Shown: positions 4,306 to 64,000 of the stretch, piece by piece
How the letters are laid out: each line of letters starts with the position of its first letter
How positions within the stretch are numbered: the first letter of the stretch is position 1
From: a virus
Reading direction: 5' to 3' (one strand)
Length of the DNA stretch: 64,000 bases
IMG/VR virus record: IMGVR_UViG_3300028844_001691
Location: 14,997 to 78,996 of that record
Notes under the pieces: model-generated
Seen by the model: the letters and a program-made list of their open reading frames with translations, nothing else
What the model was told of the DNA's origin: nothing
Database searches by the model: none
Translations under genes and position numbers: made by a program

Positions 4306-4968
4306 ATGAGTAACGTTAAAATCATAAGTTATAGTAAAGCACCTGACAATATCGAATTAGATAATGTGGAGGATCTTATTGCCTTTTGTGCCAGGGTAAG
4401 TAACCCTAGTAATCAAATGAATAAGGAAACTAATTCAAAACTAATTAAGTATTTGATTAAACATAAACACTGGTCACCACTTGAAATGGTTAGTGCTTGT
4501 TTAGAGATTCATACCACACGTGATATTGCACACCAAATTGTAAGGCATAGAAGTTTTGCCTTTCAAGAATTTAGTCAACGTTATGCTAATCCAAACGAAC
4601 AAGCAGAAATGTTTGAATTACGTGACGCAAGGTTACAAGACACAAAGAATAGACAGAATAGTATTGCCACAGAAAATGTAGAACTTATTCATTCATGGAT
4701 TGAAAAGCAACAACAAGTCATCGATAAAGCAAAAGAAGTTTACGATTGGGCTATTGAAAATGATATTGCAAAGGAACAAGCAAGAGTAGTACTTCCGGAA
4801 GGACTTACTAAAACAACTTTGTATATGAATGGTAGTTTACGTTCGTGGGTACACTACATTGAATTGCGTGGTGCTAATGGTACACAACAAGAACATATGG
4901 ACATTGCTCATGCTTGTGCTAAAGTTATCGCAAATATCTTTCCACTTATAGAAGAAATAAATATATAA
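4306..4968 (+). CDS. thyX: FAD-dependent thymidylate synthase
   Basis: ThyX signature RHRSFAFQEFSQRY; HWSPLE; AKEQARVVLP. Confidence 0.97.
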   Translation: MSNVKIISYSKAPDNIELDNVEDLIAFCARVSNPSNQMNKETNSKLIKYLIKHKHWSPLEMVSACLEIHTTRDIAHQIVRHRSFAFQEFSQRYANPNEQAEMFELRDARLQDTKNRQNSIATENVELIHSWIEKQQQVIDKAKEVYDWAIENDIAKEQARVVLPEGLTKTTLYMNGSLRSWVHYIELRGANGTQQEHMDIAHACAKVIANIFPLIEEINI

Positions 4969-44098: not shown

Positions 44099-45300
44099 AA
44101 TTCTAATACCTTTGTGATATGTTTTCTAATCTCACCTGTTCTAATTAAGTTGCGATTGTGTATAAGGATTGGTCTCATATGTTTCTTTATTGTTTCTAAT
44201 TCTTTATATGATTGATTACTAATGTCGATAATAATATCAAATACTTTATCCATTCTTTTAATAGGATCAACTTCCTCATCGTAACTTTCATCCCAAAACT
44301 CGTGGAATGTTTTTGCTCCCCAATGCTTTAACAAGTCTAAACTATGTACACCTGCTAACAATAATACAGGTGAACCTTGCTTCATAGGGTTTAATGTTTT
44401 TTCACTTATTTGTCCCCAGGGGTATTCGTAATTTGTTTCACATACCAGACTAGCAAACGAGTTCCAATAAGTATCTTCTAACGGATCAGAAGTAGTAATA
44501 TTATTTATGGCTCCTACTTGTGGGCTCATATAATCTTTCATGCTTACTACTTGACATTCAGTATCTTCTTTTGTTAACGGTAAATGAGTCATAAGGTCTT
44601 TACAACCTTTGCTATAAGATTCAAAATGTTTACTGTTGTTTAATGGAAATTTTAAAAGTACATCATCTGTTTTATGATAATGCGTAATAACACTGTCCTT
44701 TGGCATTGTGTTATATAAGAAACTAACAGCCGCGTGTCTATGCTGATCCCAGCGATATGTAAAACAGTTTATTTTATGATTAATTTCTTCTGGTAGACCA
44801 TTGCTAGGTTCTCTGTTATAATGACAAGCACCTAAACTAAAAGTGTCTAATGGGTAAATTGCCCAGTCGGAATACTTTGTGTTTTGTAATTGCTCTAACA
44901 TACGATACTCATTTGTAAATATTTTAAACTTACAGTTGTGTTTATTACACCAGTTTTGTATCATATCGAATTCATTGATGCTACAATCTTCTTGTATTAA
45001 CCCGTCTGGGCAACTATACCTGGAGTGATTTTGCCATACTGATAATACTTCGTACAAAAAGAAATATACTGTCGTATGGTCTACAAAGTTAATACTTGAA
45101 TCTGACCAAGATTCGAACCATTCACACGGACCGTCAAATATAAAATAAGGGGTTTTGATTTCTAAACTTTGGAGTGATTCTGCTGTTTTTCGAAATCTTC
45201 CACGTGTGTCACTAAATTTAGTGATGGTTGACGTTGCATCAACTACAGAGTGGTTTATTGCTTTGTTAATATTATTTATGTAAATTGAGTTAAATTGCAT
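44095..45300 (-). CDS. putative glycosyltransferase-like protein
   Basis: C-terminal LVCET...ISEKTLNP...G.KTF...DESYD, reminiscent of GT10-like donor-binding motifs. Confidence 0.5.
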   Translation of the reverse strand: MQFNSIYINNINKAINHSVVDATSTITKFSDTRGRFRKTAESLQSLEIKTPYFIFDGPCEWFESWSDSSINFVDHTTVYFFLYEVLSVWQNHSRYSCPDGLIQEDCSINEFDMIQNWCNKHNCKFKIFTNEYRMLEQLQNTKYSDWAIYPLDTFSLGACHYNREPSNGLPEEINHKINCFTYRWDQHRHAAVSFLYNTMPKDSVITHYHKTDDVLLKFPLNNSKHFESYSKGCKDLMTHLPLTKEDTECQVVSMKDYMSPQVGAINNITTSDPLEDTYWNSFASLVCETNYEYPWGQISEKTLNPMKQGSPVLLLAGVHSLDLLKHWGAKTFHEFWDESYDEEVDPIKRMDKVFDIIIDISNQSYKELETIKKHMRPILIHNRNLIRTGEIRKHITKVLEL

Positions 45301-46648
45301 CGAACCAAGCCATATATTCGGGAAAAACTTCGCTAAAAATGGTACTTCTACGTTTATCGAGCTCTTTAGTATATACTTTAAAGTTCTGCTTATGATTATT
45401 ACTATCTACTGTTTGTTGACTTCTCCAGTATTCAATAATACGTTCTAGTTTAGCAGTTTCACTATTATGCATTAACTCTACAATTTCCATCTGTTTCATA
45501 TACTCAACTGTATTAGTCATGTATTCTTCAAATGTTTTATCTAGTATTTTAACATCCATCATCTCAGGATATCTTAAAAAAGGTATGTCAATGTACATAC
45601 AATCTCTACCGTATTGTTTTCTTATTTCAACTAAATCTTTTAGGAAGTCTTTGAATGATGTTACACTTAATGCATTGTAGGTACACATGAATGTAACTAC
45701 AAACCTGTCTTCATTTTTAAATTCTTCTAATACACGTTTTACATTTTTTATAAACTTGTTATAATCTAAACCATTTCTAATATACTCTGCTTTATTACCA
45801 AATGCTTCTGCACTTGTGTAAACTTCTAGTTTACGAACTTTGCCACTTGCTAATACTTTCTTTGCTTGATTAATAAACTTATCGAATAGTTTGTCCTCAA
45901 CACAAAAGTTACTATTAATACCTAACAGTAAATCTTTATTTGGTTTATCTGTTTCAATGATCCAGTCCATCATTTTAAATGTGTTCTTGTTCATAAGTGG
46001 CTCGCCACCTGTAACACGGAACGTATGCAATGCTGGATACAACTCAGGCCACCATTCCCAAAATGCTTCTACATATGGATTGTGTTCTCTTTCTGGTATA
46101 GGCATTCTGCCTCTACGTTCTGTCCATGTTATGTCGTTGTAATTATCTGAAGTGCTAAAGCCTCCATGTTGTTTTACTTCTTGCATCCACGCACTACTAA
46201 TAGCAGGACTACAATACATACATTTAAAATTACAAGCATAACCAAAACTTACTTCTACATAACTTGGTTGAAAGTTTGTACTCCAATCATTATTTTTAAT
46301 TGTATCAAAGTGTTTGTTACTCCAACTAAATGCACTCTTTAAATGTCTGTCACTTAAAGCATTTGGATCTGCATCTTCAACTCTCCAACAGTAGTCACAT
46401 TCTTTAGGTCTACCACCTTCAAGCATTTCTTTACGTTGTTGTTTTTTATATATAGAGTTGTGTAATGAACTAGGGTCTAGTTTAATTTCGTCAACTGGTA
46501 CTTGGTGTACCGGTGGGTGATGACAACTATGTGCAGTTCCATTTTGTAAGTTAAGTGTAAGTTGTGTCCACTTTGCTAAACAGAATCCAGGACCTACTGC
46601 ATTCAGTTTGGCTTTCATTTCATGCGGATCTGTTCCGGTAAAACTCAT
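45290..46648 (-). CDS. N-terminal Twitch-domain radical SAM enzyme (type B)
   Basis: FCLAKW, SCHHP, CDYC, CNFKCMYC, TGGEPL, YIRNG. Confidence 0.93.
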   Translation of the reverse strand: MSFTGTDPHEMKAKLNAVGPGFCLAKWTQLTLNLQNGTAHSCHHPPVHQVPVDEIKLDPSSLHNSIYKKQQRKEMLEGGRPKECDYCWRVEDADPNALSDRHLKSAFSWSNKHFDTIKNNDWSTNFQPSYVEVSFGYACNFKCMYCSPAISSAWMQEVKQHGGFSTSDNYNDITWTERRGRMPIPEREHNPYVEAFWEWWPELYPALHTFRVTGGEPLMNKNTFKMMDWIIETDKPNKDLLLGINSNFCVEDKLFDKFINQAKKVLASGKVRKLEVYTSAEAFGNKAEYIRNGLDYNKFIKNVKRVLEEFKNEDRFVVTFMCTYNALSVTSFKDFLKDLVEIRKQYGRDCMYIDIPFLRYPEMMDVKILDKTFEEYMTNTVEYMKQMEIVELMHNSETAKLERIIEYWRSQQTVDSNNHKQNFKVYTKELDKRRSTIFSEVFPEYMAWFDAI

Positions 46649-47352
46649 TACGAATAATCTTCTTTAAGTATATCCCAAGTATCATAAGGCCCTTTGACTT
46701 GATGCCATTTATCTCCAGGGTTTGTCATTTTGTCTGCTAATGGTTTATCGTTTCCATTAATGTGAATTCTGTCTCCAAAGAATATCATTGGTGTTCCAAT
46801 AATATCATATACTTGTGCTTTGTTCTTTCCTTTTAGATGAATATCTATACTAGTGTTACCACCTAGTTCTGCTTCAAAGCCTGGGAAAGTTTCGTTAAAC
46901 ATTTCACAAATACTAACACGTTCATTATTTACTTTGTCCCATTCATAATAATCATCACGTTGTTGCCCTACGGCATTTCTTCCTACAGTACTAAAGTTTA
47001 TTAACCCTGTACGTTTTTCAATATGAAGTCCATACTTGTGTTTATATTTACTGAAGTCTACTTGTTGTTCTAACCATGTGTCCATATCTTCTGGAGCATT
47101 AAGGTTACTACTCGAAACTTCAATACCATTACGCCATACACTGTTACCTGCACATTGAAATACCATTGTACAGTTGTCTACGATCTCGTGTCCTATTTGT
47201 TCTATTGTTTTAGGTCTATCACTACCTGTAACAATAAAGACACTTTTGTTTTTCATCCAGTTTAAGAACCAGAGTCTAAAGTCAACAGGAATTACTTGCC
47301 TACTTTCAGACAAGGTTCCATCTACGTCAAATACATAATTTACACGGTCCAA
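46648..47352 (-). CDS. HAD-IIB phosphomannomutase-like enzyme
   Basis: FDVDGTL, VTGSD, RTGLINFS..GR, GG.TSIDI, FGDR...GND. Confidence 0.88.
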   Translation of the reverse strand: MDRVNYVFDVDGTLSESRQVIPVDFRLWFLNWMKNKSVFIVTGSDRPKTIEQIGHEIVDNCTMVFQCAGNSVWRNGIEVSSSNLNAPEDMDTWLEQQVDFSKYKHKYGLHIEKRTGLINFSTVGRNAVGQQRDDYYEWDKVNNERVSICEMFNETFPGFEAELGGNTSIDIHLKGKNKAQVYDIIGTPMIFFGDRIHINGNDKPLADKMTNPGDKWHQVKGPYDTWDILKEDYS

Positions 47353-47501
47353 CTTTTCAACTGCTCCTTTGTTGGTTTCATTGGTTCAAGTTTTTCTATC
47401 TTACCACCCTTCTCTAAAAACTTTTTCATTCGTTCATCTAGTTTTCTTTGAAGTTCAGCAGGTTCTGGTTTTGTATAATCTTTTTGTTTATTATCTATCA
47501 T
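47340..47501 (-). CDS. 53-aa SutA-like RNA-polymerase-binding mini-protein (not in ORF track)
   Basis: MIDNKQKDYTKPEPAELQRKLDERMKKFLEKGGKIEKLEPMKPTKEQLKSWTV; ATGA coupling; FLxxGGKI motif. Confidence 0.65.
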   Translation of the reverse strand: MIDNKQKDYTKPEPAELQRKLDERMKKFLEKGGKIEKLEPMKPTKEQLKSWTV

Positions 47502-48634
47502 TGTGTTACACTGTCTATTGCTTTTCTTAATTTTAATGCTCCGGCTTTCATACCGTCTGGGTGTTCGTGAATTGCTCCACCAACATTTGCCATATAGTCA
47601 ACACCAAAGCGTCTTGTTATTTCTGGAATAAGTTCTGCTGTCATGCCACAACTTAAAGCAGGCACTACATTGTTTCCACTTAACATATGCATTGTGCTTC
47701 GAAGTTCATTTTCATCATCACTTAAATATCCGCCCCACATACCTGTATGGATTGTATCCACTCCACAGATACTTGCTAACTTACATAACACATACCAACT
47801 AATACGATATGCATTCTTTGTACTGCTTATTACTTTGTCGCCTGACTTCTGATAATGTATATACAAAGGTAAGTTTAATTTGTTAATACTCTTATAAGAT
47901 CCGTGCCCACTCCAGAAGTTAACGTGTACTCCATTACCTCCGCCATCTGCAACCATTTTGGCTCTATCTAGCAAGTACAAAGGATCACTATTAATACAAT
48001 AGCAATACACAACGTTTGTTCCTGCTAACACCCGCTGTATGACGTCTATGCGAGTCTTAAGGGGTAAACAAGCCGGGTTTGCCATTATCTCATCTTCTTT
48101 GATAAAGTCAACTCCGCCTTCTACAAATGCAGTAACAATTTCGACTAATGCTTGTTCTGTTAGTCCTGTCTTGGGTTTAACAATACTACCTAGCAATGGC
48201 TTGTTGTAATTGCCTGTAAGTTTTCTAAATCCTGATAATCCGTAACGTGGTGCAACTGCATCACATAATGAAAAATCGATATCTAAATCTAATAGTTCAC
48301 ATCTGTGAATATAATCGATGTCCATTTGTCCACCCATTAACACACAAAGTAATTGTGCTATTCCATCAGTTTCCCAGTCAATAATTCTATAGGGCCAAGC
48401 AATTTTAACTATGCCTGTGTTCTTTCCTATAAAGTCTGCTGGCTTTCCAATAATCTTTGCTGAGTATTGTTCAATCAACTCTGGTGTTTCATATTCATTT
48501 CTTACACTAGGGTTACCTACACTTTGCCCGACTGCTAATCCAAATGCCGCCTTGTTTAAGTCGTTACCTTCTAGTTTGTATGTTACTGTAAAGTATTCCT
48601 TGGGATCTACTTCACTCACGTATATATCAAGCAT
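47498..48634 (-). CDS. RuBisCO-like protein (form IV)
   Basis: GSIVKPKTGL, GGVDFIKEDE, DTIHTG, PALSCG, GGAIHEHPDG; loop-6 Lys absent. Confidence 0.93.
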   Translation of the reverse strand: MLDIYVSEVDPKEYFTVTYKLEGNDLNKAAFGLAVGQSVGNPSVRNEYETPELIEQYSAKIIGKPADFIGKNTGIVKIAWPYRIIDWETDGIAQLLCVLMGGQMDIDYIHRCELLDLDIDFSLCDAVAPRYGLSGFRKLTGNYNKPLLGSIVKPKTGLTEQALVEIVTAFVEGGVDFIKEDEIMANPACLPLKTRIDVIQRVLAGTNVVYCYCINSDPLYLLDRAKMVADGGGNGVHVNFWSGHGSYKSINKLNLPLYIHYQKSGDKVISSTKNAYRISWYVLCKLASICGVDTIHTGMWGGYLSDDENELRSTMHMLSGNNVVPALSCGMTAELIPEITRRFGVDYMANVGGAIHEHPDGMKAGALKLRKAIDSVTQ

Positions 48635-48651
48635 AATGTATTGTACCTTCT

Positions 48652-48981
48652 TTATTCTTTAATGTCAAACATATATTTGTCATCTGTGTCACAAATATCT
48701 CTAACTACTGTTAATTCTACATCGGTTAAGTATTCAACTTGACTAACTTCATATGGGTATAATATAAAAATGTCGCCTTCGCTAAATATTTCTCCGTTAA
48801 TTTTTACTTTTCCTTTTCGCATACAGTTGATCTCTGTACCTTTTTTATGAAAGTGATCCTGATGGAATTCACCTTTTTTGTGTCTGTGAATACCAACTTC
48901 AAAGTTTGCCTTAAAAGCCGTAGGTTCAAAGTTACCTACAAACCATCCACCTTTCATATCATCTAATTTAAATTTCTTCAT
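48652..48981 (-). CDS. cupin-like protein
   Basis: GGWFVGNFEP, HFHK..TE...GDIF. Confidence 0.75.
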   Translation of the reverse strand: MKKFKLDDMKGGWFVGNFEPTAFKANFEVGIHRHKKGEFHQDHFHKKGTEINCMRKGKVKINGEIFSEGDIFILYPYEVSQVEYLTDVELTVVRDICDTDDKYMFDIKE

Positions 48982-49262
48982 TTATGTTCCTCTAACAAGT
49001 TATATTCATATAACTCTTTTGGTGTATTAACTATAAGCATATCAGGATCGTGTACATCCATAAACTTAACTTCGTTAACGTAAACTTTACACATATCAGT
49101 TAGTTCAGGATAGTCTAATATTAATTCATTATCTAATATTACAGTATCAAAGTTTCCTACTTCAAGTGTTCTTTGTAAAACACTTCTGCCATTACAGGCA
49201 ACAACTGCGATTGGGTAATCCCAACCTATCCACTTATCGTTTGATACAGATAGTTTGCCCAT
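48978..49262 (-). CDS. hypothetical protein
   Basis: ORF in operon; start position uncertain. Confidence 0.5.
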   Translation of the reverse strand: MGKLSVSNDKWIGWDYPIAVVACNGRSVLQRTLEVGNFDTVILDNELILDYPELTDMCKVYVNEVKFMDVHDPDMLIVNTPKELYEYNLLEEHK

Positions 49263-49921
49263 CCTTTATGTCCTTCATCTAATGTGTGTCCACCTGTGCC
49301 ACAGGGCCAGCCTTGACTTTTTGTCATGTCAATAAAACTTGGCATAATGTAATTAACATCTTTAAGCCATTCGCTGTCTGGTTCGTCAAGTGCAAACGTT
49401 TGTATTAATTTTACTTTTAAACTTTTTGCAATTTGTTGTAAGTTCCACATACGTTCAAACTGCATTTGTTTTCTACTTTCAGTTCCTAGTGTTGTTGTAT
49501 ACGGTTTGTGCATTTTATTAATTGTATTAACTAACATAGGATCTAAATTCATTTCATCGTTGCCTGGTATATGTCCTGGTATGTTATAACATACATTATG
49601 ATAAGGTATATACTTTGCACCTTGCCAATCCACTGGTAACTCATCACGTTCAAACGTTGTCCAACAAACAACAACAAGCAATTCTGCACCTGGATGTTTA
49701 TTACACCATTCACGCATAAAACGTATTGTGCGTCTTGCTATTCTGCTCCCACTTGTTCCACGCATTGCTTCATTTACAACCGCTGGTATACTTAACTTAT
49801 CTGCAAGTAGTTTGGGCCAACTGTTACGCAATCTGTATGTAGGTGTGTCATCATTATAAGGTAATCCTAATTCATCACCTTCGGTCCAACTATCACCATT
49901 TGCATACAAACATTTAATCAT
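49226..49921 (-). CDS. SGNH/GDSL-like protein
   Basis: YANGDSWT, NEA..G.S, C-terminal GH...GH. Confidence 0.75.
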   Translation of the reverse strand: MIKCLYANGDSWTEGDELGLPYNDDTPTYRLRNSWPKLLADKLSIPAVVNEAMRGTSGSRIARRTIRFMREWCNKHPGAELLVVVCWTTFERDELPVDWQGAKYIPYHNVCYNIPGHIPGNDEMNLDPMLVNTINKMHKPYTTTLGTESRKQMQFERMWNLQQIAKSLKVKLIQTFALDEPDSEWLKDVNYIMPSFIDMTKSQGWPCGTGGHTLDEGHKGWANYLYQTISG

Positions 49922-50640
49922 CCACGCCACCATTTGTTATGATAGTTAGATAAATCTTCTGGAGTACCAACCGGGCTAAAGTTCTTTGCTTCTACCTCAT
50001 ATGGTTTAACAATATTATTTTTAAGTGTGTAATTATACACTGGTGCTAGATAAAATTCGTTATTGTGTCTATCATTGTTTTCAATCATTTGTTCAGCACC
50101 TTCAACAAATAAACTTCCTTTGCTCCAATGGTATAAACCAACAGTAGCCATATTACTAATTGCAACTTTCTCTGCCGCTTCTGTTATGTGCCCGTCGTCA
50201 TTAATCTTAACAAAACTATGTTTATTATGATTATGTGGGTAGGTCATTACCCAACTCACGTGGGGCTCAAGTTTACATTTTTCTAAAAACATTTCGCTAT
50301 CCCAATGTAACACTTGATCACTGTTAATACTAATTAAAGGTTCGTCGTTGTTTATAAATTCTTTTGCTTTTAATAAACTACAAGCGGCACCATCTGTAAG
50401 ATGATCTAGTGCAACAATATTAACATTGTCTGCAAAACTTTCTAAATGTTCTTTAAGCCATGGATAATCAACAAGATGTTCTTGTTGAACTACGAATGTA
50501 TAGTTACCAGCAATACCTAAACTATCAACAGCACTTTGTATCATTGTGGTGCCACCAACTCTTACTAGAGGTTTAGGAACAGTATATCCTGCATCTTTGA
50601 ATCTACTGCCGGCTCCTGCCATTCCAATTATAATATTCAT
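49918..50640 (-). CDS. sugar-phosphate nucleotidyltransferase
   Basis: MAGAGSRF..AGY..PKPL, TDGAA, NSD, AEK, EFY, GTPED. Confidence 0.9.
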   Translation of the reverse strand: MNIIIGMAGAGSRFKDAGYTVPKPLVRVGGTTMIQSAVDSLGIAGNYTFVVQQEHLVDYPWLKEHLESFADNVNIVALDHLTDGAACSLLKAKEFINNDEPLISINSDQVLHWDSEMFLEKCKLEPHVSWVMTYPHNHNKHSFVKINDDGHITEAAEKVAISNMATVGLYHWSKGSLFVEGAEQMIENNDRHNNEFYLAPVYNYTLKNNIVKPYEVEAKNFSPVGTPEDLSNYHNKWWRG

Positions 50641-50647
50641 CGATTTC

Positions 50648-50770
50648 CTACTTATATATGTATGGGTCTTTTTTCTTAATCTCTTTTAATTTTTTTCTGT
50701 AAGCACGTTCAAGTTTAATTCGATAAACTATGTCACCAAACCAACGTTTAATTTTTTTTAGTATATACAT
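50648..50770 (-). CDS. 40-aa basic small protein (not in ORF track)
   Basis: MYILKKIKRWFGDIVYRIKLERAYRKKLKEIKKKDPYIYK fills the intergenic gap. Confidence 0.6.
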   Translation of the reverse strand: MYILKKIKRWFGDIVYRIKLERAYRKKLKEIKKKDPYIYK

Positions 50771-50789
50771 TTTATGAGTTCCATATTGT

Positions 50790-51509
50790 TTACTGTTGCA
50801 AGTGAGCAACAATAGTTTTTGCTAATTTTTTATGTCCTAATTCATTAGGGTGTCTTCCGGGAGCCCTTACGTCTTCAAGGTGTTCGTATTCCATTAATTG
50901 TCTATTGAAACTAATGGGATATGGGGATATTGCATCTAACCATTTTTCATTTGCTTCGGGTCTACCTAGTACAAATTCTGGATTGTCTAAAGCATATGTT
51001 TGTAATAATCTAACTCCTAAATTATCACAGGCTTGCTTCAACAACCATTGTAAGTTAAAGAACTTATAACTATTTACCTTACTACTGTTCAGCATAGTAC
51101 GATTCATGTGATAATCTAACATTAATTTATCAGTTACATTTGGTTTAGAATTCATAAGCATACTTGTATATTCAATATCTAATGATTCCCAATCGGTATA
51201 TCCGTTATTGTGTTCTCTTTTAACTGCAACTGGAAGTTCAAATCTTTCATATGTAGTCCATGCAACAATTACTAAAAGTTCCTCTGGGTTACCTTTATAG
51301 TTTCTAATATAGTCTATAGTCTTTCGAAATATTCTATCATTACTTCCGCCACCTTGTGCTTCGTTAACTAGTTGTGGTATTTTTAATTCTTGTGCAACGT
51401 GCCAGGGCCAAGTATTATAAAACTTGTATGTAAGATGATCTGTATTATCATCTTTTAACTCTTGTCCAAAAGTCCAACTATCACCGTTTGCATATAAAGT
51501 TTTAATCAT
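50790..51509 (-). CDS. SGNH/GDSL-like protein
   Basis: YANGDSWTFG, GGSNDRIFR, HPNELGH. Confidence 0.8.
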   Translation of the reverse strand: MIKTLYANGDSWTFGQELKDDNTDHLTYKFYNTWPWHVAQELKIPQLVNEAQGGGSNDRIFRKTIDYIRNYKGNPEELLVIVAWTTYERFELPVAVKREHNNGYTDWESLDIEYTSMLMNSKPNVTDKLMLDYHMNRTMLNSSKVNSYKFFNLQWLLKQACDNLGVRLLQTYALDNPEFVLGRPEANEKWLDAISPYPISFNRQLMEYEHLEDVRAPGRHPNELGHKKLAKTIVAHLQQ

Positions 51510-52269
51510 CTAATAACCTCTTACACATTTTTGCTATATTATTTTGAAACTCGGGTCCACTATGCATATGATCTCTAGCAAGTAAAGTTAAGTCATTTTT
51601 TATATCAGAATAATGTAATGGAAATTCTAAATTTTGTAAATGGTCAAAAGGGCACCAAGTTATATTTAAAACAGGAACACCTAAAGACTGCCATACATTA
51701 TTAAAACCTAAGTACCAAGCAATATTATTCATATGTATTTCACCATCTGATGTTATATAATACTTCCACCAATCATCTTCTTTGCCGTTAGAAACATCTA
51801 AACTAATTTTATCGTTATTATAAGTTCCCCAACTTTTTCTATTTGCTTCGGGCCATTGTACTATAACTTGTTTTGGTAATGGTAGTTTATGCTGTTTCCA
51901 TAATAAACTATTATAGTAAATTACATCTAACCCTGTTCCGGATTTGCCTGCATTATAATAATCCATCTTTAGTAGTTTAGCAAGTTTATAAGGCCACGTT
52001 TGGTAGTCATGTAAGCCTGTACCTTCTGTGAAACTACATCCAAACGTTAATATAAAATCTTTATCTAATTGATCAACTTCTTTTGATCTATAACCAAAAC
52101 TATTGAATTCATATTTAATACTAACTTCGGACCAACGCCAATTTTGTAATTTTTTTAAATTATTACTGTAAAACTCTTTACTATCACTACTGTACCATTC
52201 TAAGGATTTACTAGCAACACTAGTATCTAACATTTGTGGATAACTAGGGTGATAACTTAATGAGGCCAT
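51502..52269 (-). CDS. SGNH/GDSL-like protein
   Basis: FNSFGYRS, FGCSFTEG, ARDHMHSG (DxxH). Confidence 0.75.
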   Translation of the reverse strand: MASLSYHPSYPQMLDTSVASKSLEWYSSDSKEFYSNNLKKLQNWRWSEVSIKYEFNSFGYRSKEVDQLDKDFILTFGCSFTEGTGLHDYQTWPYKLAKLLKMDYYNAGKSGTGLDVIYYNSLLWKQHKLPLPKQVIVQWPEANRKSWGTYNNDKISLDVSNGKEDDWWKYYITSDGEIHMNNIAWYLGFNNVWQSLGVPVLNITWCPFDHLQNLEFPLHYSDIKNDLTLLARDHMHSGPEFQNNIAKMCKRLLDD

Positions 52270-53045
52270 TGTGCATCTACTTTAGGTTTAATAATTTCAA
52301 ACACTTGCCTATGTCCTTCGTAGTCACAATGTCCTGTGTTCCTTTTGTCAGGATACTCTCTACTAAAATAACCCCAATCAACATTTGCATAATTTACTTC
52401 AGGTAGCAGTCTTTCAAAGTCTGGCTGGTGTCCCATAAAAACGTGTGGTATATTATTTGTTTTCATTAGCAAGTGTGCTGATGTTAAAATACCAATGTCA
52501 TACTCATTTTTAATATCAAATGAGAAAAAGTCTGCTACCCAATTCTGTAATACTCTTAAACGTGCATCTGGCTCGTGTCTTTCAAACTGTGCCCAATGTG
52601 CCTTAACATCTCTATCAAAGAAACTATCTAAATTTTGTAGTGTTTCACTTTGCATACTATTATCAGTTGTAACTGGAATAGGTCTTCGAAACTCTGCTGG
52701 TGTGTATTTGTCATACGGCGGATAGTCTTCATAATTTAAATGTTCAATTGTTGGTTCTGTTCCCATAGGTTTATCTTGTCCAGGTTTAAACCAAACAGTT
52801 CTTGCCGCATTTGTCATACTAATAATAACGAAAGGTTTGTAATTACCTACTGTCATTCTTTCAACTGCGTGTTTTACTTGCAACCAAATAGTGAAGTTAC
52901 AACATCCACTTCTACCAATTACTTTTTGTTCTACACCTTTGTATTCGGCAGTAAGTCCACCAAAACTTTTCTCAAAACAATCATGGTCAGGTAATCCACT
53001 ACCATTACTAAAACTATCACCGCACGTTATAATTAAATTTCGCAT
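52257..53045 (-). CDS. SGNH/GDSL-like protein
   Basis: CGDSFS, GCCN, GHCDYEGH. Confidence 0.75.
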   Translation of the reverse strand: MRNLIITCGDSFSNGSGLPDHDCFEKSFGGLTAEYKGVEQKVIGRSGCCNFTIWLQVKHAVERMTVGNYKPFVIISMTNAARTVWFKPGQDKPMGTEPTIEHLNYEDYPPYDKYTPAEFRRPIPVTTDNSMQSETLQNLDSFFDRDVKAHWAQFERHEPDARLRVLQNWVADFFSFDIKNEYDIGILTSAHLLMKTNNIPHVFMGHQPDFERLLPEVNYANVDWGYFSREYPDKRNTGHCDYEGHRQVFEIIKPKVDAQWPH

Positions 53046-53905
53046 ATGTTATTCTCTCTAATATATCTATTAAGTTCTCTTGCCCAAAGCATATGTCCAT
53101 ATTTGTTTGGGTGCATACCTGATATAACTTTTGTATTATACTCAGTTTCATCTTGACTTGTAATATATCCATGAAAACTATGTGGTGCTTCTGTTTTACC
53201 GTAGAATCTTTTGCTGTCTACTTGTTCCCATAACCAACCATCGTTTTGTCCGTTATAATGAAAGTTCCAACGTGGGTCAGCATTGCCTACAGTCATCTTT
53301 TCTGTTTCACTATTAACATAATTCTTATCTTGCCATTGTGCTATTTGTGTTTCATCTACATTATAAAATGCTTGAAAGAACAAGTAGTTAATCTTATGTA
53401 CTTTAAAAAAGTTTTCTAATTGTAGTACTTGTTGTACATATCGATTAACATACTCTTCTTTATTCCATAAGTACATTCTGTAGTTATCAAAGAAGGGTTG
53501 CATACCTCTTTGCATATACGGATGGTTAGTTTGATTGGGCCATATAGTAGTCCAGCCAGAGCCGTTACGTTCGTCTACAGGATCCTTATAGTAAAAGTCC
53601 TTACGTTCAGGACTAGTTAAGCCAACTATGACAAACAAATTGTTTTCACAGTCTATATCAGGCTTAATATAATTTTCAGTAATCCAACTTAATGTTGTTC
53701 TTACAATTCTATCATTACTTGCGGCAGGATAAGATATGTTTGTTAAGTCATCTGCTTTAATCATATCCTTTAACATAGTGGGCCAAATTTTAGGAATGCG
53801 ATATGCATTGTTCTCTGGATCCCAATCACTTACAGTGTCTGGTAAAGCAGGATCTCTAATCTCACTGCCAAATGTCCAACTATCTCCTGTTGTTAATAAG
53901 TGCAT
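53033..53905 (-). CDS. SGNH/GDSL-like protein
   Basis: TGDSWTFG, ASNDRIVR, HPNKYGH. Confidence 0.8.
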   Translation of the reverse strand: MHLLTTGDSWTFGSEIRDPALPDTVSDWDPENNAYRIPKIWPTMLKDMIKADDLTNISYPAASNDRIVRTTLSWITENYIKPDIDCENNLFVIVGLTSPERKDFYYKDPVDERNGSGWTTIWPNQTNHPYMQRGMQPFFDNYRMYLWNKEEYVNRYVQQVLQLENFFKVHKINYLFFQAFYNVDETQIAQWQDKNYVNSETEKMTVGNADPRWNFHYNGQNDGWLWEQVDSKRFYGKTEAPHSFHGYITSQDETEYNTKVISGMHPNKYGHMLWARELNRYIRENNICEI

Positions 53906-54654
53906 TAATAAGCCGCCTTTATCTCTTCAAATTGTGTACTTGGATCTAAATCTTCTACACTAGTTCTCCAAAGTGTTTCCATTAATTGTGGAACAATTTG
54001 TATCATTTTAATATTTCTTTTTTGTGCTTGTTGATATATTAATGTTCCAGGACTTAACATACTATCTCCTGGATCTGTAGTATAACCACCTTGTAGTTTT
54101 AATGCTAATGGATAAGTTTCCCAATTATAATAACGATATGAATCACAAGCAATATCCATACTAGGACTATCACCCCAGAATATAATATCACTTAATCCGT
54201 GTTTACCAAAGTCGTTTGGTACTAAACCTCTGTTACCAATACTATAGTATATACTTCTTTCTTCAATAGGTCTCGGACCAAATGTTTTTCCATCTGGTGT
54301 TAGCATATCATATCTGCATTTAATTACTTTATCATATCTAAAATTATTCTTTACTTCAACTTCACGTTTCATAAAGTTTGATTTTTGTATACTGTAAAGC
54401 ATATTACCAAACGGGCCTGCATGATTAATTGAAGTTTGATAATCTAGTTTAATTAAATTATGTACACTATCATTAATAGTTTCTTCTAATATTTTGTAGT
54501 CATCTAATTTATGTAACTTGTCACCTGAGGTTGTCCAAGTATGACAATAAATGTCTGCTGGTGTATCTCTAAAGTAATCCATTAAACGTGGCATAGCAAC
54601 TTTAAAAGTTCTAAGTTCACCACTAAAACATATTGCAGTATTAGAGTGTTTCAT
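53905..54654 (-). CDS. putative glycosyltransferase (AxCxSGxxR family)
   Basis: AICFSGELR, HTW, YD.VI..RYD. Confidence 0.55.
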   Translation of the reverse strand: MKHSNTAICFSGELRTFKVAMPRLMDYFRDTPADIYCHTWTTSGDKLHKLDDYKILEETINDSVHNLIKLDYQTSINHAGPFGNMLYSIQKSNFMKREVEVKNNFRYDKVIKCRYDMLTPDGKTFGPRPIEERSIYYSIGNRGLVPNDFGKHGLSDIIFWGDSPSMDIACDSYRYYNWETYPLALKLQGGYTTDPGDSMLSPGTLIYQQAQKRNIKMIQIVPQLMETLWRTSVEDLDPSTQFEEIKAAY

Positions 54655-55378
54655 AATCGCCTCCTCCTGTCATATGTTCTTGTTTAGGTCTTACTAGTTT
54701 AATTGGGGGATATATTTGTTCTAAGTTTAAGTTACATTCTTTTAAGTAATACATAAAAACGTGTTCAGGTCCATAATGTAATTTCTCTGGCATTTCAAAA
54801 AACTCTATTGGGTGTCTATGAAAGTGACTATAAAAATCACAAGCAATATCATAAACATCTGTTGGTCCTTGCCAATACAAATCTCCACAACGACTTCTGT
54901 GATTGCCTTCTTCAAATCCTAAATGTATAACTTGTAACGTATCTTTCTTAGGTTCAGGTACTTGCCAATCTTCGTCAAACATAGTGTCCCAACGTAATCT
55001 AACAACTAAATCAAAGTTACTATTGTTCTCTATTTCAAATTTCTTTTTTAAATGTGATGCTACCATTACACCATAAAACTGACTTTGGTAATTAACATCA
55101 TGTAATGCTTGGTCTAAACCTGGTGTGAATTCAATTTGTTTTTGTGATACTATTTCTAGTCCAGGTAATTCTCTACGAAGTTCTTGTATCTCAGTATTAG
55201 GAACTTCTTCTATGTCATCGATACCTTTAGTTACTTTAACAAAGTTTGGTGCACTACGAGTATTCCATGTATGTCCAAAGTAATGTACTTCGTGTTCTTT
55301 AAATATATCTTTCCAAGTTGGTAAACATTTACGCCAACTCTGTCTTAATTGTCCACTTAAACAAATTGCTATTTTCAT
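54641..55378 (-). CDS. putative glycosyltransferase (AxCxSGxxR family), paralog of 53905-54654
   Basis: AICLSGQLR, HTW, FDLVVRLRWD. Confidence 0.55.
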   Translation of the reverse strand: MKIAICLSGQLRQSWRKCLPTWKDIFKEHEVHYFGHTWNTRSAPNFVKVTKGIDDIEEVPNTEIQELRRELPGLEIVSQKQIEFTPGLDQALHDVNYQSQFYGVMVASHLKKKFEIENNSNFDLVVRLRWDTMFDEDWQVPEPKKDTLQVIHLGFEEGNHRSRCGDLYWQGPTDVYDIACDFYSHFHRHPIEFFEMPEKLHYGPEHVFMYYLKECNLNLEQIYPPIKLVRPKQEHMTGGGDYETL

Positions 55379-55390
55379 AATGTTATCCTT

Positions 55391-55633
55391 TTAAAACCAG
55401 TTCCAAACTCCACGTATTGCTAAACACAGATACATAAGTTCCATTAGTGCTCTGGGTATATCTTTATCTTTGTAACCCATGTATACCCAAATACTACAAC
55501 TGAATAATGCAACTGTCCACCCTAGCCATTGTAGTTCTTCGTTACCACTTGATAATATAAATGCACTTATCATTGCTAGGATAAAACCTAGCCACCTAAA
55601 TCCATCCAGTTTTTCGTAAAAGCGAATTTTCAT
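55391..55633 (-). CDS. small membrane protein
   Basis: Three hydrophobic helices. Confidence 0.7.
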   Translation of the reverse strand: MKIRFYEKLDGFRWLGFILAMISAFILSSGNEELQWLGWTVALFSCSIWVYMGYKDKDIPRALMELMYLCLAIRGVWNWF

Positions 55634-56051
55634 AATTGCTTACCCAATCAGAGCAAATACCAAAGCAACCCTCAGGGACGGTATCTTTCTCATTTTGCAA
55701 ACATATAACACTTTTAGATGTTACTTGTTTGTAAGGGTATGTCCAAATATACCCTTTACTTGTTAATGTTCTTTCATCTTGTTCATGCCAAAAGCAATGT
55801 ATGTAATTAAATAACATAAATTCTAATGCTTCTAAATTTTTTGCATGATTCCAAAATGCATTGTTGCTTATAAAATTTTGTGTAACAGGGTATGTAGGTT
55901 TATCGTGTCCTAGCCATAACCGTTCATTAACAAACCACACATCGACTTCGCAGTCAAAACCTTTGTCAACTGCGTTAAGTAAATACTCAGGATCATTTTC
56001 CCTCTCAGGTTTAGGACCTGCTGTATTTCCTCTATGTGCGATTAGTTTCAT
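55596..56051 (-). CDS. glycerophosphodiester phosphodiesterase-like (PLC-like) protein, minimal
   Basis: IAHRGN, EN, EVDV, LGHD, GICSD. Confidence 0.8.
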   Translation of the reverse strand: MKLIAHRGNTAGPKPERENDPEYLLNAVDKGFDCEVDVWFVNERLWLGHDKPTYPVTQNFISNNAFWNHAKNLEALEFMLFNYIHCFWHEQDERTLTSKGYIWTYPYKQVTSKSVICLQNEKDTVPEGCFGICSDWVSNYENSLLRKTGWI

Positions 56052-56229
56052 CTTCTTTTCTTATACTCCAAGTTTTATTGTCAAGTTCTTCCCAAATAAG
56101 ATTATCACCTACGTCCCATCCTACTTGATCTAAACACCCAGGAGGAAATTCTAAAAACAGTTCTTTTGTTTTGCCATTCTCTTGTATTTCTACTGTCCAA
56201 CTGTTTGTTCCTGTTTGTTTATATTTCAT
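56032..56229 (-). CDS. AbrB/MazE-like DNA-binding protein
   Basis: LEFP...LDQVGWDVGDNLIW swapped-hairpin pattern. Confidence 0.7.
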   Translation of the reverse strand: MKYKQTGTNSWTVEIQENGKTKELFLEFPPGCLDQVGWDVGDNLIWEELDNKTWSIRKEDETNRT

Positions 56230-57164
56230 TATTTCTTCCTATCTGCTTCTTGCTCTGTAATCATTACACCATAACGTTTTGGATTTTGGTATACACTTTT
56301 AAACCATATACTACCTTGTGCATCTAAATCTGCAACTCTGTAATGAAGTTCATCTCTTAATCTATCACCATAGTGTTGCAATTTTTTCAAACGATCTTTA
56401 GGATTTGAATATACTTTTGTTTTCTCTCGTACAAAAGGTTGCATAAAACTATAGTCGGCAATTTGTGTATGATCCCATCCATCTAGATTTATTTTCGCAA
56501 CTGCTTCTCTGGCTCCTAATATTGCCCAATCACCATTTGGAACATCCATACCAACACTACACCAAATACTAAGGCGTTGCATATTTTTAATATGATTCTG
56601 TGTTAAGAATTTATTTTTAGGAGGAAGTATACCTTTATCTAAACTCATTTTAACACCTTCTCTAAAGCCGCCTCTGTATGCTTGTTCTGGTGTTGCGTTA
56701 ATAACGACATCACTAAATGTATCTGCCATTTGGAAGTATGTGTGCATCCAACAAAAGTCTACACTATGAGCACCATCTTCACTTTGGTCATTCTCATGAC
56801 TATTCATATTCTCAATAACGTGTTTGGGCCATAGTTTAAGTCCGCCATTACCGTATGCTAAACTATTAACAATGTTATGTCCACACCAACTAAAGATATA
56901 ATCGCCTTGTTCTTCTTCGTCAATCTCAATAGTTTGTTTAAAAAAATCTTTATGTACAACATTGTCTCCGTCTACTGTAACTAATCTTCTTTTAGTTGCA
57001 ATCCTGCCTGCTTCATTGTGTGCCGCGTCGAACCCAGTAAAGCCGTCGACACGTTTAGCCCATGGACACTTGCTTAACAAGTCTGCCCAATTCTTTTCTT
57101 TGTTTGGTTCATCGTAACTAATGTAAACTACATCAAAGTCACTAATTGGATAAGTCTGTTTCAT
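56229..57164 (-). CDS. putative glycosyltransferase (GT-A-like; paralog of 37423-38085)
   Basis: SYDEPN, AAH, VDGD (DxD), YGNGGLKLWP, GFREGVK. Confidence 0.6.
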   Translation of the reverse strand: MKQTYPISDFDVVYISYDEPNKEKNWADLLSKCPWAKRVDGFTGFDAAHNEAGRIATKRRLVTVDGDNVVHKDFFKQTIEIDEEEQGDYIFSWCGHNIVNSLAYGNGGLKLWPKHVIENMNSHENDQSEDGAHSVDFCWMHTYFQMADTFSDVVINATPEQAYRGGFREGVKMSLDKGILPPKNKFLTQNHIKNMQRLSIWCSVGMDVPNGDWAILGAREAVAKINLDGWDHTQIADYSFMQPFVREKTKVYSNPKDRLKKLQHYGDRLRDELHYRVADLDAQGSIWFKSVYQNPKRYGVMITEQEADRKK

Positions 57165-60810: not shown

Positions 60811-62283
60811 TTAGTTTACTTTAACGAAGCACATTACTGAACCTTCGTCTTCTGTATATTTATTTTCTAATGCTCTACCAATAGTATTGAAAGCATTAAT
60901 TTCACTTGAAGAACCTGCTCTTGCAACTCCGTTACCTGCACTAATTAAACGATCGCCTTTGTTCACAGTACCGACTACCATTACCGGAACACGACCTTGA
61001 ATAGCAACTGCTGGATGAGTTTCCTCACTACCTGCTCCTGCATTCATTAAATATGCTGGTCTAGTTGAGATAACGCCAAAAACTTTACTTGAAGCCTCTT
61101 CGTTAACTCTTGTAATTTCTTCTACTCCGCCTAGTGCTACTACTGTACCTGGAGCATAAGTGTTGTCAGAAGCAAAACGCTCTGCCAAGTCAGCATATTG
61201 AGCCGATGTACTTTCTCCATGAAATGTAGTTGCGTGTATTTGAGCATACTTGGTTCCACTGGAACCTAAGTTTCTTGTATTGTTTGCATCTGGTAATAAA
61301 TTACCTGCTAATGCAACACTACCGTCACTTGCTAATGTACCGGACGAACCTAATACACCATCAACATATGCTTTAGTGGCTACACCTAATGTTTGTGTAG
61401 GTGCACCTAACACTAATACTTCACCCGTTGCGCCATCGATAGTTAATGCACTTTTTGGAGTACCACCATCGTTAACACCGAGAATTAAATCTCCGTCTGA
61501 TGTATTATTTTTAATTGTAACATCATTAGTTGCGATTGTCAATGTTAAATCATTATCAGCACCAACTGTTACACCACCATCGTTAAGAACACCTAGTGTT
61601 CCACTTGTTGTGTCGTTAGCATCTGAACGCAAATAACTTGTTGCGGCTTGTCCACCTAATGAATCTGAATCAGTGGCTGTGCCGTTTAATTTGTTGTTTG
61701 TAACACCAGTACTTAAATTGTACCCTGGTGCAATACTTGAAAATCCTGTTATAGTTGGACTTGGTGTAAATGCTGTATCTTTACTTACGATTGCAACAAT
61801 TACATCTGAAATCATTATTTTTACAATAACGTGTGCTGTTCCACCACCATCATTTACTGATTCAACTACTGGTCCACTTTGTCCAGCACCTGAACTAAAT
61901 GCAGGTCCTACTAGTGTCCATGTTGCACCATTATAAACTTTTAATTGAGTATTAGCGGTATCCCACCATAAATCTCCTACTACACCTGACGCTGGCTGTG
62001 AGGCACTTGCAGTTGAACTTGAAACAGTTTTAAAAGTACTACCTGTGTAAACTTTTAATAAATTGTTTGTAGAATCCCACCAAAGTTGACCTGCCAACGG
62101 TGAACTAGGAGCAGTTGTGTTTGAGAAGTTCTCTAGCAGTTTGACAAAGTTTTCGTTTAATGCATCGCCGTAACCACTATAATTTTTTCCAATAAGCGTT
62201 AAGTCAGCAGTTGAGCTGTCAATAGTACCGTCTGCCACGTTGGCTAGTACTGTTCCGCTTGTTTTATTAATTGTATAGGCCAT
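60811..62283 (-). CDS. tail fibre/baseplate protein with C-terminal intramolecular-chaperone-like domain
   Basis: LIGKNYSGYG...NENFVKLLENF, GQLWWD/GDLWWD repeats, ATKAYVD, AQYADLAE...GRVPV...KGD.L. Confidence 0.8.
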   Translation of the reverse strand: MAYTINKTSGTVLANVADGTIDSSTADLTLIGKNYSGYGDALNENFVKLLENFSNTTAPSSPLAGQLWWDSTNNLLKVYTGSTFKTVSSSTASASQPASGVVGDLWWDTANTQLKVYNGATWTLVGPAFSSGAGQSGPVVESVNDGGGTAHVIVKIMISDVIVAIVSKDTAFTPSPTITGFSSIAPGYNLSTGVTNNKLNGTATDSDSLGGQAATSYLRSDANDTTSGTLGVLNDGGVTVGADNDLTLTIATNDVTIKNNTSDGDLILGVNDGGTPKSALTIDGATGEVLVLGAPTQTLGVATKAYVDGVLGSSGTLASDGSVALAGNLLPDANNTRNLGSSGTKYAQIHATTFHGESTSAQYADLAERFASDNTYAPGTVVALGGVEEITRVNEEASSKVFGVISTRPAYLMNAGAGSEETHPAVAIQGRVPVMVVGTVNKGDRLISAGNGVARAGSSSEINAFNTIGRALENKYTEDEGSVMCFVKVN

Positions 62284-63006: not shown

Positions 63007-64000
63007 TTATAACTTCAACATAATTTCTACTAACTTGTCACCATTGTCAGTATTTGTTTCTAATGCAATACCAACTATTGGTCCTGAGCCGTTCATACTT
63101 GCTTTACCGTCTGCAATAGCAAGTGCCGGAGCACCTTTAGTAATTGGACCAGACACTATACAAGGTACACGACCTACTAGTGCTATTGGTTGTCCATCTG
63201 CATCTTTGTTCATTAAGTATGCAGGTGCAGTTGAAATAACTCCAGCAATATAATCATCGCCAGGTTGATATTTTCTAACTTCTTCAGTACCACCAACTAC
63301 AACAACTGTACCTGGTAATAATTCAGCATTTGGTTTATATACCTCAGCCAAGTCAGCATATTGAGCCTGTGTAGCAGTTCCGCTAAAAATACCTGCCGCT
63401 AATGTATCTGTACTTGGATTATATGTTAAATTAGTATCAACATACAAATCTTCATCTCCAGATGTAGCATCAGCAAATGTTAAATAATGTGTCGCGTTTG
63501 TAGTACTGCTTTGTATATTTATCTTGTCTGCATTTACGGCATCTGTAGCATTGGCTACTGTGCCACTAACATTAATAGTTATTGTGTTATCTGTTGTAGC
63601 AGTGGTAATATTTGTTCCACCTGCAAATACTAATGTATCAGTACCAACAGTAACGTTATCTGTAGTTGAACCATCACTAACTGTTAGTGTAGTACTTAAA
63701 CCTGAAACTTGTGCGTCAACATACGCCTTAGTAGAGGCATCTTGTGCCGCTGTTGGATCAGCCATTGCTGTAATTTTATTACTGCCCATTGCTAATGCAC
63801 CAGCCATTGTTCCACCTGCTAGTGCAAGTTTAGTAGTGTCTGCTGTTGTTAATGTGTTTAGTTGTGTTTGGATAGCACTTGTTACACCATCTAAATATCC
63901 AATTTCTGTATAAGTTAATGTTGATGGTATTCCGTCTAATACATTTAATTCTGTTGCTGTTGCTGTAATACCAAGTCCGCCTAATGTTGCACTTGTTGGA
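63007..64000 (-). CDS. tail fibre protein, C-terminal part (5' truncated by window edge)
   Basis: Frame is open to the window end (TATELNVLDG...EIGYLDGVTSAIQTQL), DPTAAQDASTKAYVD, AQYADLAE...GRVPC chaperone-like tail. Confidence 0.85.
   Translation of the reverse strand, partial: PTSATLGGLGITATATELNVLDGIPSTLTYTEIGYLDGVTSAIQTQLNTLTTADTTKLALAGGTMAGALAMGSNKITAMADPTAAQDASTKAYVDAQVSGLSTTLTVSDGSTTDNVTVGTDTLVFAGGTNITTATTDNTITINVSGTVANATDAVNADKINIQSSTTNATHYLTFADATSGDEDLYVDTNLTYNPSTDTLAAGIFSGTATQAQYADLAEVYKPNAELLPGTVVVVGGTEEVRKYQPGDDYIAGVISTAPAYLMNKDADGQPIALVGRVPCIVSGPITKGAPALAIADGKASMNGSGPIVGIALETNTDNGDKLVEIMLKL

Follow-up and report, generated by a model that had tools for sequence, protein, structure and literature searches.

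A divergent clade of form IV-like proteins was described by Jaffe, Castelle, Dupont and Banfield (2018, Mol Biol Evol; PMC6389311): about 80 RuBisCO-like proteins (RLPs) from phages, together with a homolog from Beckwithbacteria. These phage RLPs lie on myovirus-type IMG/VR contigs and their key residues are unlike those of known form IV proteins; that article left their function open. A second system that comes close is the phage route to UDP-D-arabinofuranose (PMC13326640), which starts from ribulose 5-phosphate, runs via an arabinose-5-phosphate isomerase, the kinase/nucleotidyltransferase AfhE and the HAD phosphatase AfhF, and serves DNA modification. Here we describe a gene cassette at positions 46648-56051 of the window, by which we mean the whole 64,000-nt stretch analysed (bases 14997-78996 of the 78,996-bp linear IMG/VR record IMGVR_UViG_3300028844_001691; CheckV completeness 22%). 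The cassette carries an RLP that, by homology rather than by a joint tree, is assigned to the clade of PMC6389311, whose Beckwithbacteria homolog is our locus L089. The stretch probably represents a widespread cassette for sugar activation, with a nucleotidyltransferase (NTase) at its centre, in the expanded form of a jumbo phage; we propose for it a route into glycan synthesis. A link of these RLPs to an NTase, a cupin, a glycerophosphodiester phosphodiesterase (GDPD) and GT-A-type proteins does not appear in the accessible part of the 2018 account; it is quantified here, with gene fusions in addition. A full-text literature search combining RuBisCO-like, nucleotidyltransferase and cupin returned no paper, and we found no publication describing the cassette.

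Like MtnW/YkrW, the 5-methylthioribulose-1-phosphate isomerase of Rhodospirillum rubrum and OiaX, the phage RLP (47498-48634, minus strand) has the RuBisCO fold, the lysine pair and the carbamate/Mg triad, and lacks the loop 6 carboxylation lysine. It passes the RuBisCO large-subunit superfamily model PF00016 (116.9 bits, cut-off 30.1; 1.3e-33), and its best match among solved structures is the Pyrococcus RuBisCO 2cwx (4e-32). When it is aligned to 2cwx, the KPK lysines and the K-x-D-E Mg/carbamate site are kept, and the substitutions H294Q, R295K, K334Y, E60Q and N123G are seen. Over 27 members of the clade, residues K153, K155, K179, E180, D181, E182, Q262 and Y303 are invariant, as are S328-C329-G330 and G352-G353 of the proximal phosphate site; the distal phosphate site varies, with K or S at 263 and H or Q at 296. 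Because the Mg/carbamate and proton-abstracting core (KPK and K-E-D-E) is kept, the carboxylation residues are lost and only the proximal phosphate site is invariant, the sequence fits an enzyme that enolises a keto-sugar with one firmly bound phosphate, not a carboxylase.

The RLP falls far short of every NCBIfam RuBisCO and RLP cut-off. Against carboxylating RuBisCO forms I-III stand the five substitutions listed above and a TIGR03326 score of 149 bits where 497 are needed. The 2,3-diketo-5-methylthiopentyl-1-phosphate enolase MtnW/YkrW fails on both of its models (NF007095, 124.6 bits against 409; TIGR03332, 101 against 513.6). The first-pass annotation had suggested a branched or shortened sugar or polyol as product, in view of the RLPs of branched-sugar (apiose/hamamelose) catabolism; with 116 bits against the NF042437 cut-off of 700 for the apiose-pathway protein OiaX, this is a suggestion by analogy only. 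On these scores (101-125 bits where the cut-offs are 409-700), and with the clade-specific H294Q, K334Y, E60Q and N123G, the RLP is placed outside all characterised RLP families. Its context also differs, being biosynthetic, with an NTase and transferases, whereas characterised RLPs serve salvage or catabolism. Identity is 48-57% to RLPs on diverse IMG/VR contigs and 48% to the Beckwithbacteria homolog, which comes from a metagenome-assembled genome (MAG). Neither megablast of 46000-56500 nor tblastn of the RLP against 50,697 GenBank phage records, a collection from which some records may be missing, found the RLP in an isolate.

The first-pass annotation had placed the RLP, a cupin, an NTase, a HAD mutase, a mini phosphodiesterase and two AxCxSGxxR proteins within 10 kb on one strand, and all of them are indeed intact, tightly packed minus-strand open reading frames (ORFs). 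Since every gene across 8090-64000 lies on the minus strand, adjacency and co-direction of the cassette genes are uninformative within the window; what exceeds chance is conservation over genomes and gene fusion, not clustering on one strand. A scan of IMG/VR gave 193 contigs with an RLP relative, 80 of which were fetched as RLP loci. From these we drew a dereplicated set of 23 viral loci (less than 75% RLP identity, with 3 kb or more of flank on each side). The NTase lay no more than 10 kb from the RLP in all 23 loci; the same held for the GDPD in 21, for the cupin in 19 and for an AxCxSGxxR protein in 16. All were on the strand of the RLP except in one NTase case and one cupin case. By profile search of the 80 RLP loci, the respective counts were 78-79 for the NTase, 64 for the GDPD, 59 for the cupin and 46 for AxCxSGxxR. 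A metal-type small cupin is the usual companion of the RLP, and the typical order of the compact cassette is NTase-cupin-RLP-GDPD. Twelve cupin-less loci carry a distant AxCxSGxxR subfamily directly 3' of the RLP. Two types of cassette can be told apart: in those with a cupin, the RLP is usually followed by a Methyltransf_24 gene (25 of 26 genes of this kind), and the cupin-less ones (within L011-L079) have an FkbM-type methyltransferase, the distant AxCxSGxxR protein and a 243-aa protein instead.

Several of these genes are also fused. A search of a collection of 5.8 billion proteins yielded three RLP-NTase fusion proteins (664-671 aa) and two RLP-NTase-cupin fusions (P0001 and P0002, 813 and 817 aa). 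NTase-cupin fusions occur in loci L066 and L072, and an NTase-GDPD fusion in L109, from a DPANN MAG. Together with the co-occurrence, the RLP-NTase, RLP-NTase-cupin and NTase-cupin fusions support a functional coupling of RLP, cupin and NTase. The mini-GDPD and AxCxSGxxR proteins are supported as parts of the same conserved neighbourhood. Among 139 neighbouring genes of 26 diverse phage loci, Pfam models identified sugar methyltransferases, GDP-mannose 4,6-dehydratase, GT10 fucosyltransferases, GT2, DegT, NeuB and T4 gp15. Methyltransferases and the GDP-mannose dehydratase, companions of the cassette elsewhere, were not found in this window.

The cassette is centred on the 4evw-type NTase, not on the RLP, because the NTase, GDPD and AxCxSGxxR proteins are far commoner without the RLP. 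A search with the NTase family gave at least 583 viral stretches, compared with 193 contigs for the RLP. In an NTase-centred sample of 57 fetched loci with adequate flanks, the RLP was present in 11, the cupin in 16, the GDPD in 42 and AxCxSGxxR in 35. Where the RLP was missing, the NTase was nearly always fused to a HAD domain (42 of 46 loci, against 3 of the 11 RLP loci; Fisher's exact p = 4e-5, without phylogenetic correction), and the three RLP loci with the HAD-NTase fusion also hold a second, unfused NTase. The fusion is about 455 aa long with an N-terminal HAD_2 domain, confirmed by Pfam on two examples. Among cultured cyanophages, S-PRM1, S-CAM9 and Bellamy carry HAD-NTase cassettes. 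Locus L138 carries, between its HAD-NTase fusion and its GDPD, a 373-aa protein (L138:4157-5278) with four DUF4379 treble-clef zinc-finger repeats (1e-73); its contig is 316 kb long yet 18% complete and may derive from a much larger virus.

A third arrangement is found in the cultured Synechococcus phage S-SKS1, in which SWZG_00042 (L223:7001-8428) is a 475-aa NTase-RibB fusion within a glycan cluster with a fucosyltransferase and an epimerase. The RibB domain is genuine (1e-47 to solved 3,4-dihydroxy-2-butanone 4-phosphate synthases). RibB shortens ribulose 5-phosphate to a C4 keto-phosphate; by analogy, the fusion is a hint towards the idea of a shortened sugar, and it offers a possible experimental handle on a sister pathway. 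Thus RLP plus cupin, fused HAD and fused RibB look like alternative front ends that feed the NTase, and the GDPD and AxCxSGxxR proteins look like the back end. This changes the module as the first-pass annotation had drawn it. The sugar-phosphate rearrangement had been shared out among RLP, cupin and mutase; the coupling of RLP and cupin to the NTase is borne out by co-occurrence and fusions, while the HAD mutase, with relatives in 10 of the 80 RLP loci, falls outside the core. The AxCxSGxxR proteins keep their standing as candidate transferases through a GT-A fold and a conserved neighbourhood, as the mini-phosphodiesterase keeps its place through the neighbourhood (21 of 23 loci), but both follow the NTase rather than the RLP.

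The same RLP clade was found in 50 loci of prokaryote assemblies at 36-52% identity. By hand count the NTase adjoins the RLP in 43 of these 50, and many of the remainder are short contigs. This adjacency is seen in Pelagibacter, Legionella, Nonomuraea, CPR and DPANN genomes. Co-occurrence of the homologs, one of the two points on which the first-pass annotation had let its module stand or fall, is found in the 23 viral loci and in cellular genomes alike. On a complete Pelagibacter chromosome the pair lies among genes for a GT9 heptosyltransferase, a CMP-sugar-type cytidylyltransferase and a second, HAD-fused NTase. In four Legionellaceae loci the RLP-NTase pair divergently adjoins a LicD-family phosphotransferase (1e-42; L122:6636-7487, L126:6761-7612, L124:6934-7773 and L128:4994-5848), with neither GDPD nor cupin; iterated search of the loci found no LicD beyond the Legionellaceae, so that it is not a general partner. 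In three of these four loci LicD is also accompanied by a conserved protein, about 325 aa long, that has no family match. In Nonomuraea rosea the pair adjoins a phage integrase, then a GT2 gene, and the cassette appears to be carried by an integrated element of this actinomycete. The region there (L117:5096-12920) comprises GDPD, RLP, NTase, GT2, an S-adenosylhomocysteine-hydrolase-like NAD-binding protein and a deoxynucleoside-kinase-like kinase beside the phage-type integrase. Glycan biosynthesis is the setting in every lineage examined.

The NTase of the window (49918-50640, minus strand) is unfused and 240 aa long. It passes PF00483 (48.6 bits, cut-off 21.2; 1e-12), with G9, G11 and R13 of its N-terminal G-x-G-x-R loop invariant and K23 nearly so. 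Its family profile matches 4evw over the full length (6.6e-38), a Vibrio cholerae 'nucleoside-diphosphate-sugar pyrophosphorylase' from structural genomics that belongs to the same family. To our knowledge 4evw has only this generic depositor name and no assigned substrate, and so gives no clue to specificity. The next matches of the profile are mannose-1-phosphate, glucose-1-phosphate and GlcNAc-1-phosphate NTases (1e-12 to 1e-7), compared with only about 5e-4 for LicC, IspD and inositol-1-phosphate cytidylyltransferase (IPCT). Because the profile favours aldose-1-phosphate NTases over the latter three, the predicted substrate leans towards an anomeric sugar 1-phosphate.

The cupin (48652-48981, minus strand) is a single domain of 109 aa that matches phrog_24762 (2.4e-32). 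Cupin motif 1, G-x5-H-x-H-x4-E-x6-G, can be read in it, with H43, H45 and E50 invariant, and the motif-2 histidine is absent. The profile of the family (34 homologs) matches solved cupins at 4e-6 to 1e-3, which places it in the cupin superfamily.

The GDPD-like miniature protein, here called mini-GDPD (55596-56051, minus strand; phrog_34507, 3.6e-25), keeps the H-R, E-N, E-x-D and H-D catalytic set of GDPDs, with H6, R7, E18, N19, E35, D37 and H49 invariant over 47 homologs. At 151 aa it is about 90 residues shorter than a canonical GDPD (about 240 aa) and has no Pfam match; its profile matches the GDPD 7e0v at 8e-5 over residues 2-54 only. The AlphaFold2 model has a pLDDT of 94, and the ten best Foldseek matches are all GDPDs bar one glucanase, with best scores that are modest (E 3e-3, TM about 0.5). 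A search with the single protein recovered 11 loci.

The two AxCxSGxxR proteins are encoded side by side on the minus strand at 53905-54654 and 54641-55378. Their N-termini read AICFSGELR and AICLSGQLR, respectively, and at 19% mutual identity they form one family; the first is placed by the family alignment and has a weak phrog_13607 match. The AlphaFold2 model of the second (pLDDT 84, pTM 0.86) has as its best Foldseek match BoGT6a, a metal-independent GT6 enzyme (2.5e-8); with VIA the same comparison gives Z 13.3 and an rmsd of 3.3 over 188 residues, and many GT-A glycosyltransferases come next. From this model, the AxCxSGxxR proteins are predicted to have a GT-A transferase fold. Like BoGT6a (4cj8/4ayj), they lack the canonical DxD motif; an invariant R129-x-D131 is present instead. 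They have no detectable sequence relationship to GT6 and other GT-A enzymes and carry motifs of their own, A-x-C-x-S-G-x-x-R at the N-terminus and Y-D...R-x-D; the family profile found no sequence match among solved structures. Two other assignments were rejected. DUF7796, suggested by a protein atlas, does not match this record, and a relationship of the AxCxSGxxR and NTase families has a profile-profile probability of 0.7%, the likeness of their N-terminal loops being positional only.

We propose the following general scheme. The RLP, with help from the cupin, would remodel a keto-sugar phosphate by enolisation, that is, by isomerisation or epimerisation. The NTase would convert the resulting phospho-sugar to a nucleotide-linked donor, from which the two AxCxSGxxR proteins would transfer the sugar unit to a glycan, and the mini-GDPD would make or cleave a phosphodiester in the same route. 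In the jumbo-phage form, the cassette is split by five SGNH and two GT-A-like paralogs, and a separate HAD protein of the phosphomannomutase (PMM) type lies by the RLP. The PMM-type HAD and the SGNH proteins would be lineage-specific additions, the former for repositioning or removal of a phosphate and the latter for O-acyl handling. The acceptor could be a virion protein, a host surface glycan directed by the phage, or something else.

Several points weigh against this scheme. We know of no member of these families whose activity, product or acceptor has been established. In a plain route to a nucleoside-diphosphate (NDP) sugar, it is hard to see where the GDPD would act. The NTase is nearer to sugar-1-phosphate NTases (1e-12) than to alcohol-phosphate cytidylyltransferases (about 5e-4), whereas LicD and GDPD hint at phosphodiester chemistry; because of this conflict we put forward the general scheme only and keep a phospho-polyol donor as its main rival. 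The AxCxSGxxR family is without a canonical DxD motif, and its Z of 13.3 is only moderately above that of NTase folds (about 10). Shared ancestry is not corrected for in the co-occurrence counts or in the Fisher test, and the fusion proteins, each from a single metagenomic contig, may be artefacts of gene calling. Finally, no promoter or terminator signal in the window delimits an operon. Sigma-70-like sites are not enriched (72 in the window, 74 expected), and the T4 late-promoter consensus TATAAATA occurs 3 times in the whole window where shuffles predict 12. The consensus TATAAATA is in fact depleted, as at least 3 occurrences were seen in 100 of 100 shuffles.

The phospho-polyol rival is a variant of the same scheme. 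Starting from a ketopentose phosphate, for example ribulose 5-phosphate, the RLP and cupin would bring about a rearrangement or a shortening, the NTase would make an NDP-alcohol in the style of CDP-ribitol, and enzymes of the LicD or GDPD type would install it as a phosphodiester, not as a glycoside. Such a phospho- or keto-polyol donor would account for LicD beside RLP-NTase in the four Legionellaceae loci without a GDPD, for a GDPD with a complete set of catalytic residues that in L109 forms one protein with an NTase, for the bona fide RibB on a sister NTase, and for an RLP whose distal phosphate site varies while the proximal one does not. It agrees poorly with an NTase profile much nearer to aldose-1-phosphate NTases than to LicC, IspD and IPCT, with the many loci that have GT-A or GT2 transferases and no LicD, and with the absence of GDPD from many cellular loci, and we regard it as unlikely. 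A much smaller chance is given to salvage of S-adenosylmethionine (SAM) by-products, in which the RLP and cupin would dispose of or recycle 5-deoxyribose or methylthioribose phosphates from the radical SAM enzymes of the island. The R. rubrum RLP is paired with a cupin, the methylsulfurylase of the 5'-methylthioadenosine-isoprenoid shunt, and this window holds at least 10 radical SAM genes, one of them directly 3' of the HAD gene. Over the RLP loci, however, radical SAM genes occur in about 13 of 80 and the NTase in 78-79; the RLP scores far under the MtnW cut-offs, and its fusion partner is the NTase, not a salvage enzyme. Membership in that shunt or in methionine salvage was rejected, as no PNP_UDP_1 (MtnN/MtnP) or IF-2B (MtnA) homolog was found in the 79-kb record, which is about 22% of the genome, so that these enzymes could still come from the host or from elsewhere in the phage genome.

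A donor for DNA hypermodification, with an activated sugar placed onto a modified base as in arabinosyl-hydroxycytosine phages, is suggested by the T4-like source of the window, by a thymidylate-synthase-like gene at 4306-4968 and by the ability of T4-like phages to make NDP-arabinofuranose from ribulose 5-phosphate (PMC13326640). Like that route, the present cassette would use phage-encoded enzymes, among them a small MurU-like NTase and a HAD enzyme, to take a pentose-phosphate intermediate to a nucleotide sugar, and by analogy the HAD-NTase sister cassettes most likely share this logic. Unlike it, the cassette has an RLP-cupin front end and a context of glycan genes, and its NTase is a single domain without a kinase, so that no bifunctional kinase-NTase enzyme is present; the HAD protein is of the PMM type where the arabinofuranose module has the phosphatase AfhF. 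No match to the SIS isomerase of that module was found among the window ORFs scanned against general family models. Since RLP-NTase pairs also lie in chromosomal surface-glycan regions of Pelagibacter and Legionella, beside LicD, GT9 and GT2, and fucosyltransferases, NeuB and sugar methyltransferases abound around the cassette in phages, we consider a role in DNA modification highly improbable. That the genes are mere neighbours in a large glycan island, without a shared pathway, would suit an island whose genes are all co-directional, in which adjacency proves nothing. It is contradicted by the co-occurrence and fusion data, with a cassette kept to about 37-50% protein identity over viruses, bacteria and archaea and four kinds of gene fusion, and is hardly credible.

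The proposed glycan route thus remains our preferred reading. A more specific form of it is doubtful and is offered as speculation: the RuBisCO fold may have been recruited for biosynthesis, with RLP and cupin acting on a common ketopentose phosphate to give a keto-sugar or polyol phosphate that is rearranged or shortened. This product would then be nucleotide-activated and added to glycans of the phage or of the cell surface, perhaps by way of a LicD or mini-GDPD phosphodiester; the HAD- and RibB-fused NTases would be parallel front ends to a donor of the same kind. If true, an RLP would for the first time have an anabolic role, in glycan building, and the activated sugar units of marine phages, SAR11 and Legionella would form a new family. 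A biosynthetic reaction class would be added to the RuBisCO superfamily, and abundant marine microbes and their viruses would carry an unrecognised sugar unit with a possible effect on phage-host recognition. As the RLP is tied to a defined set of enzymes, the question of its function is open to reconstitution, and Legionella nautarum, L. drozanskii, L. maceachernii and Nonomuraea rosea are cultivable carriers for genetics.

The source phage is taken to be a T4-like jumbo myovirus of roughly 350 kb, because a relative, with an RLP 96% identical, lies on a 306.7-kb contig (completeness 87%) that encodes a T4 gp23-type capsid protein (2.3e-99). The cassette is embedded in an island of about 50 kb with at least 10 radical SAM genes, a carbamoyltransferase, a DegT aminotransferase and an NDP-sugar dehydrogenase. 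The radical SAM genes lie in the co-directional part at 11212-46648, and several of them cross-match one another. The one directly downstream of the HAD gene (45290-46648) matches the NCBIfam N-terminal twitch-domain radical SAM model NF033640 (2.5e-97), and such a gene is present in 13 of the 80 RLP loci. Directly upstream of the island and on the same strand are tail-fibre-like genes at 60811-62283 and 63007-63999, with PHROG matches to tail fibre or virion proteins; they are compatible with glycosylation of a virion part but are no evidence for it.

The PMM-type HAD-IIB protein (46648-47352, minus strand), a phosphomutase or phosphatase, has a DVDGTL motif and passes the eukaryotic-type phosphomannomutase model PF03332 (3e-20); it is an accessory gene of the jumbo-phage lineage. 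Interleaved with the genes named in the first-pass annotation, and missing from it, are five SGNH/DUF6071 paralogs spanning 49226-53905, all on the minus strand. PF19547 is passed by three of them, at 49226-49933 (4.7e-10; GDSWT motif), 50790-51509 (1.1e-11) and 53033-53905 (9.6e-20; GDSWT and HPN motifs). The other two (51502-52269 and 52257-53045) have no Pfam match and are assigned by motif only, with GCSFT and GDSFS block-I motifs and a C-terminal His motif. These paralogs, kept only in the expanded-island lineage (about 11 of 80 RLP loci), may act on the glycan as O-acyl esterases or transferases. The PMM-type HAD, the SGNH paralogs and the twitch-domain radical SAM protein mark an expanded-island sublineage that is coherent to about 55% RLP identity.

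Genes of the cassette mostly overlap by 1-38 nt or are separated by 12-17 nt; the largest gaps, of about 150 nt, are next to ORFs of 53 and 54 aa. Three small minus-strand ORFs are kept in five close relatives only. These are a 53-aa coupled ORF between the RLP and HAD genes (47340-47501), a 94-aa ORF with no family match (48978-49262), and an 80-aa hydrophobic ORF (55391-55633) with a weak PnuC-like match (9e-4) below the cut-off.

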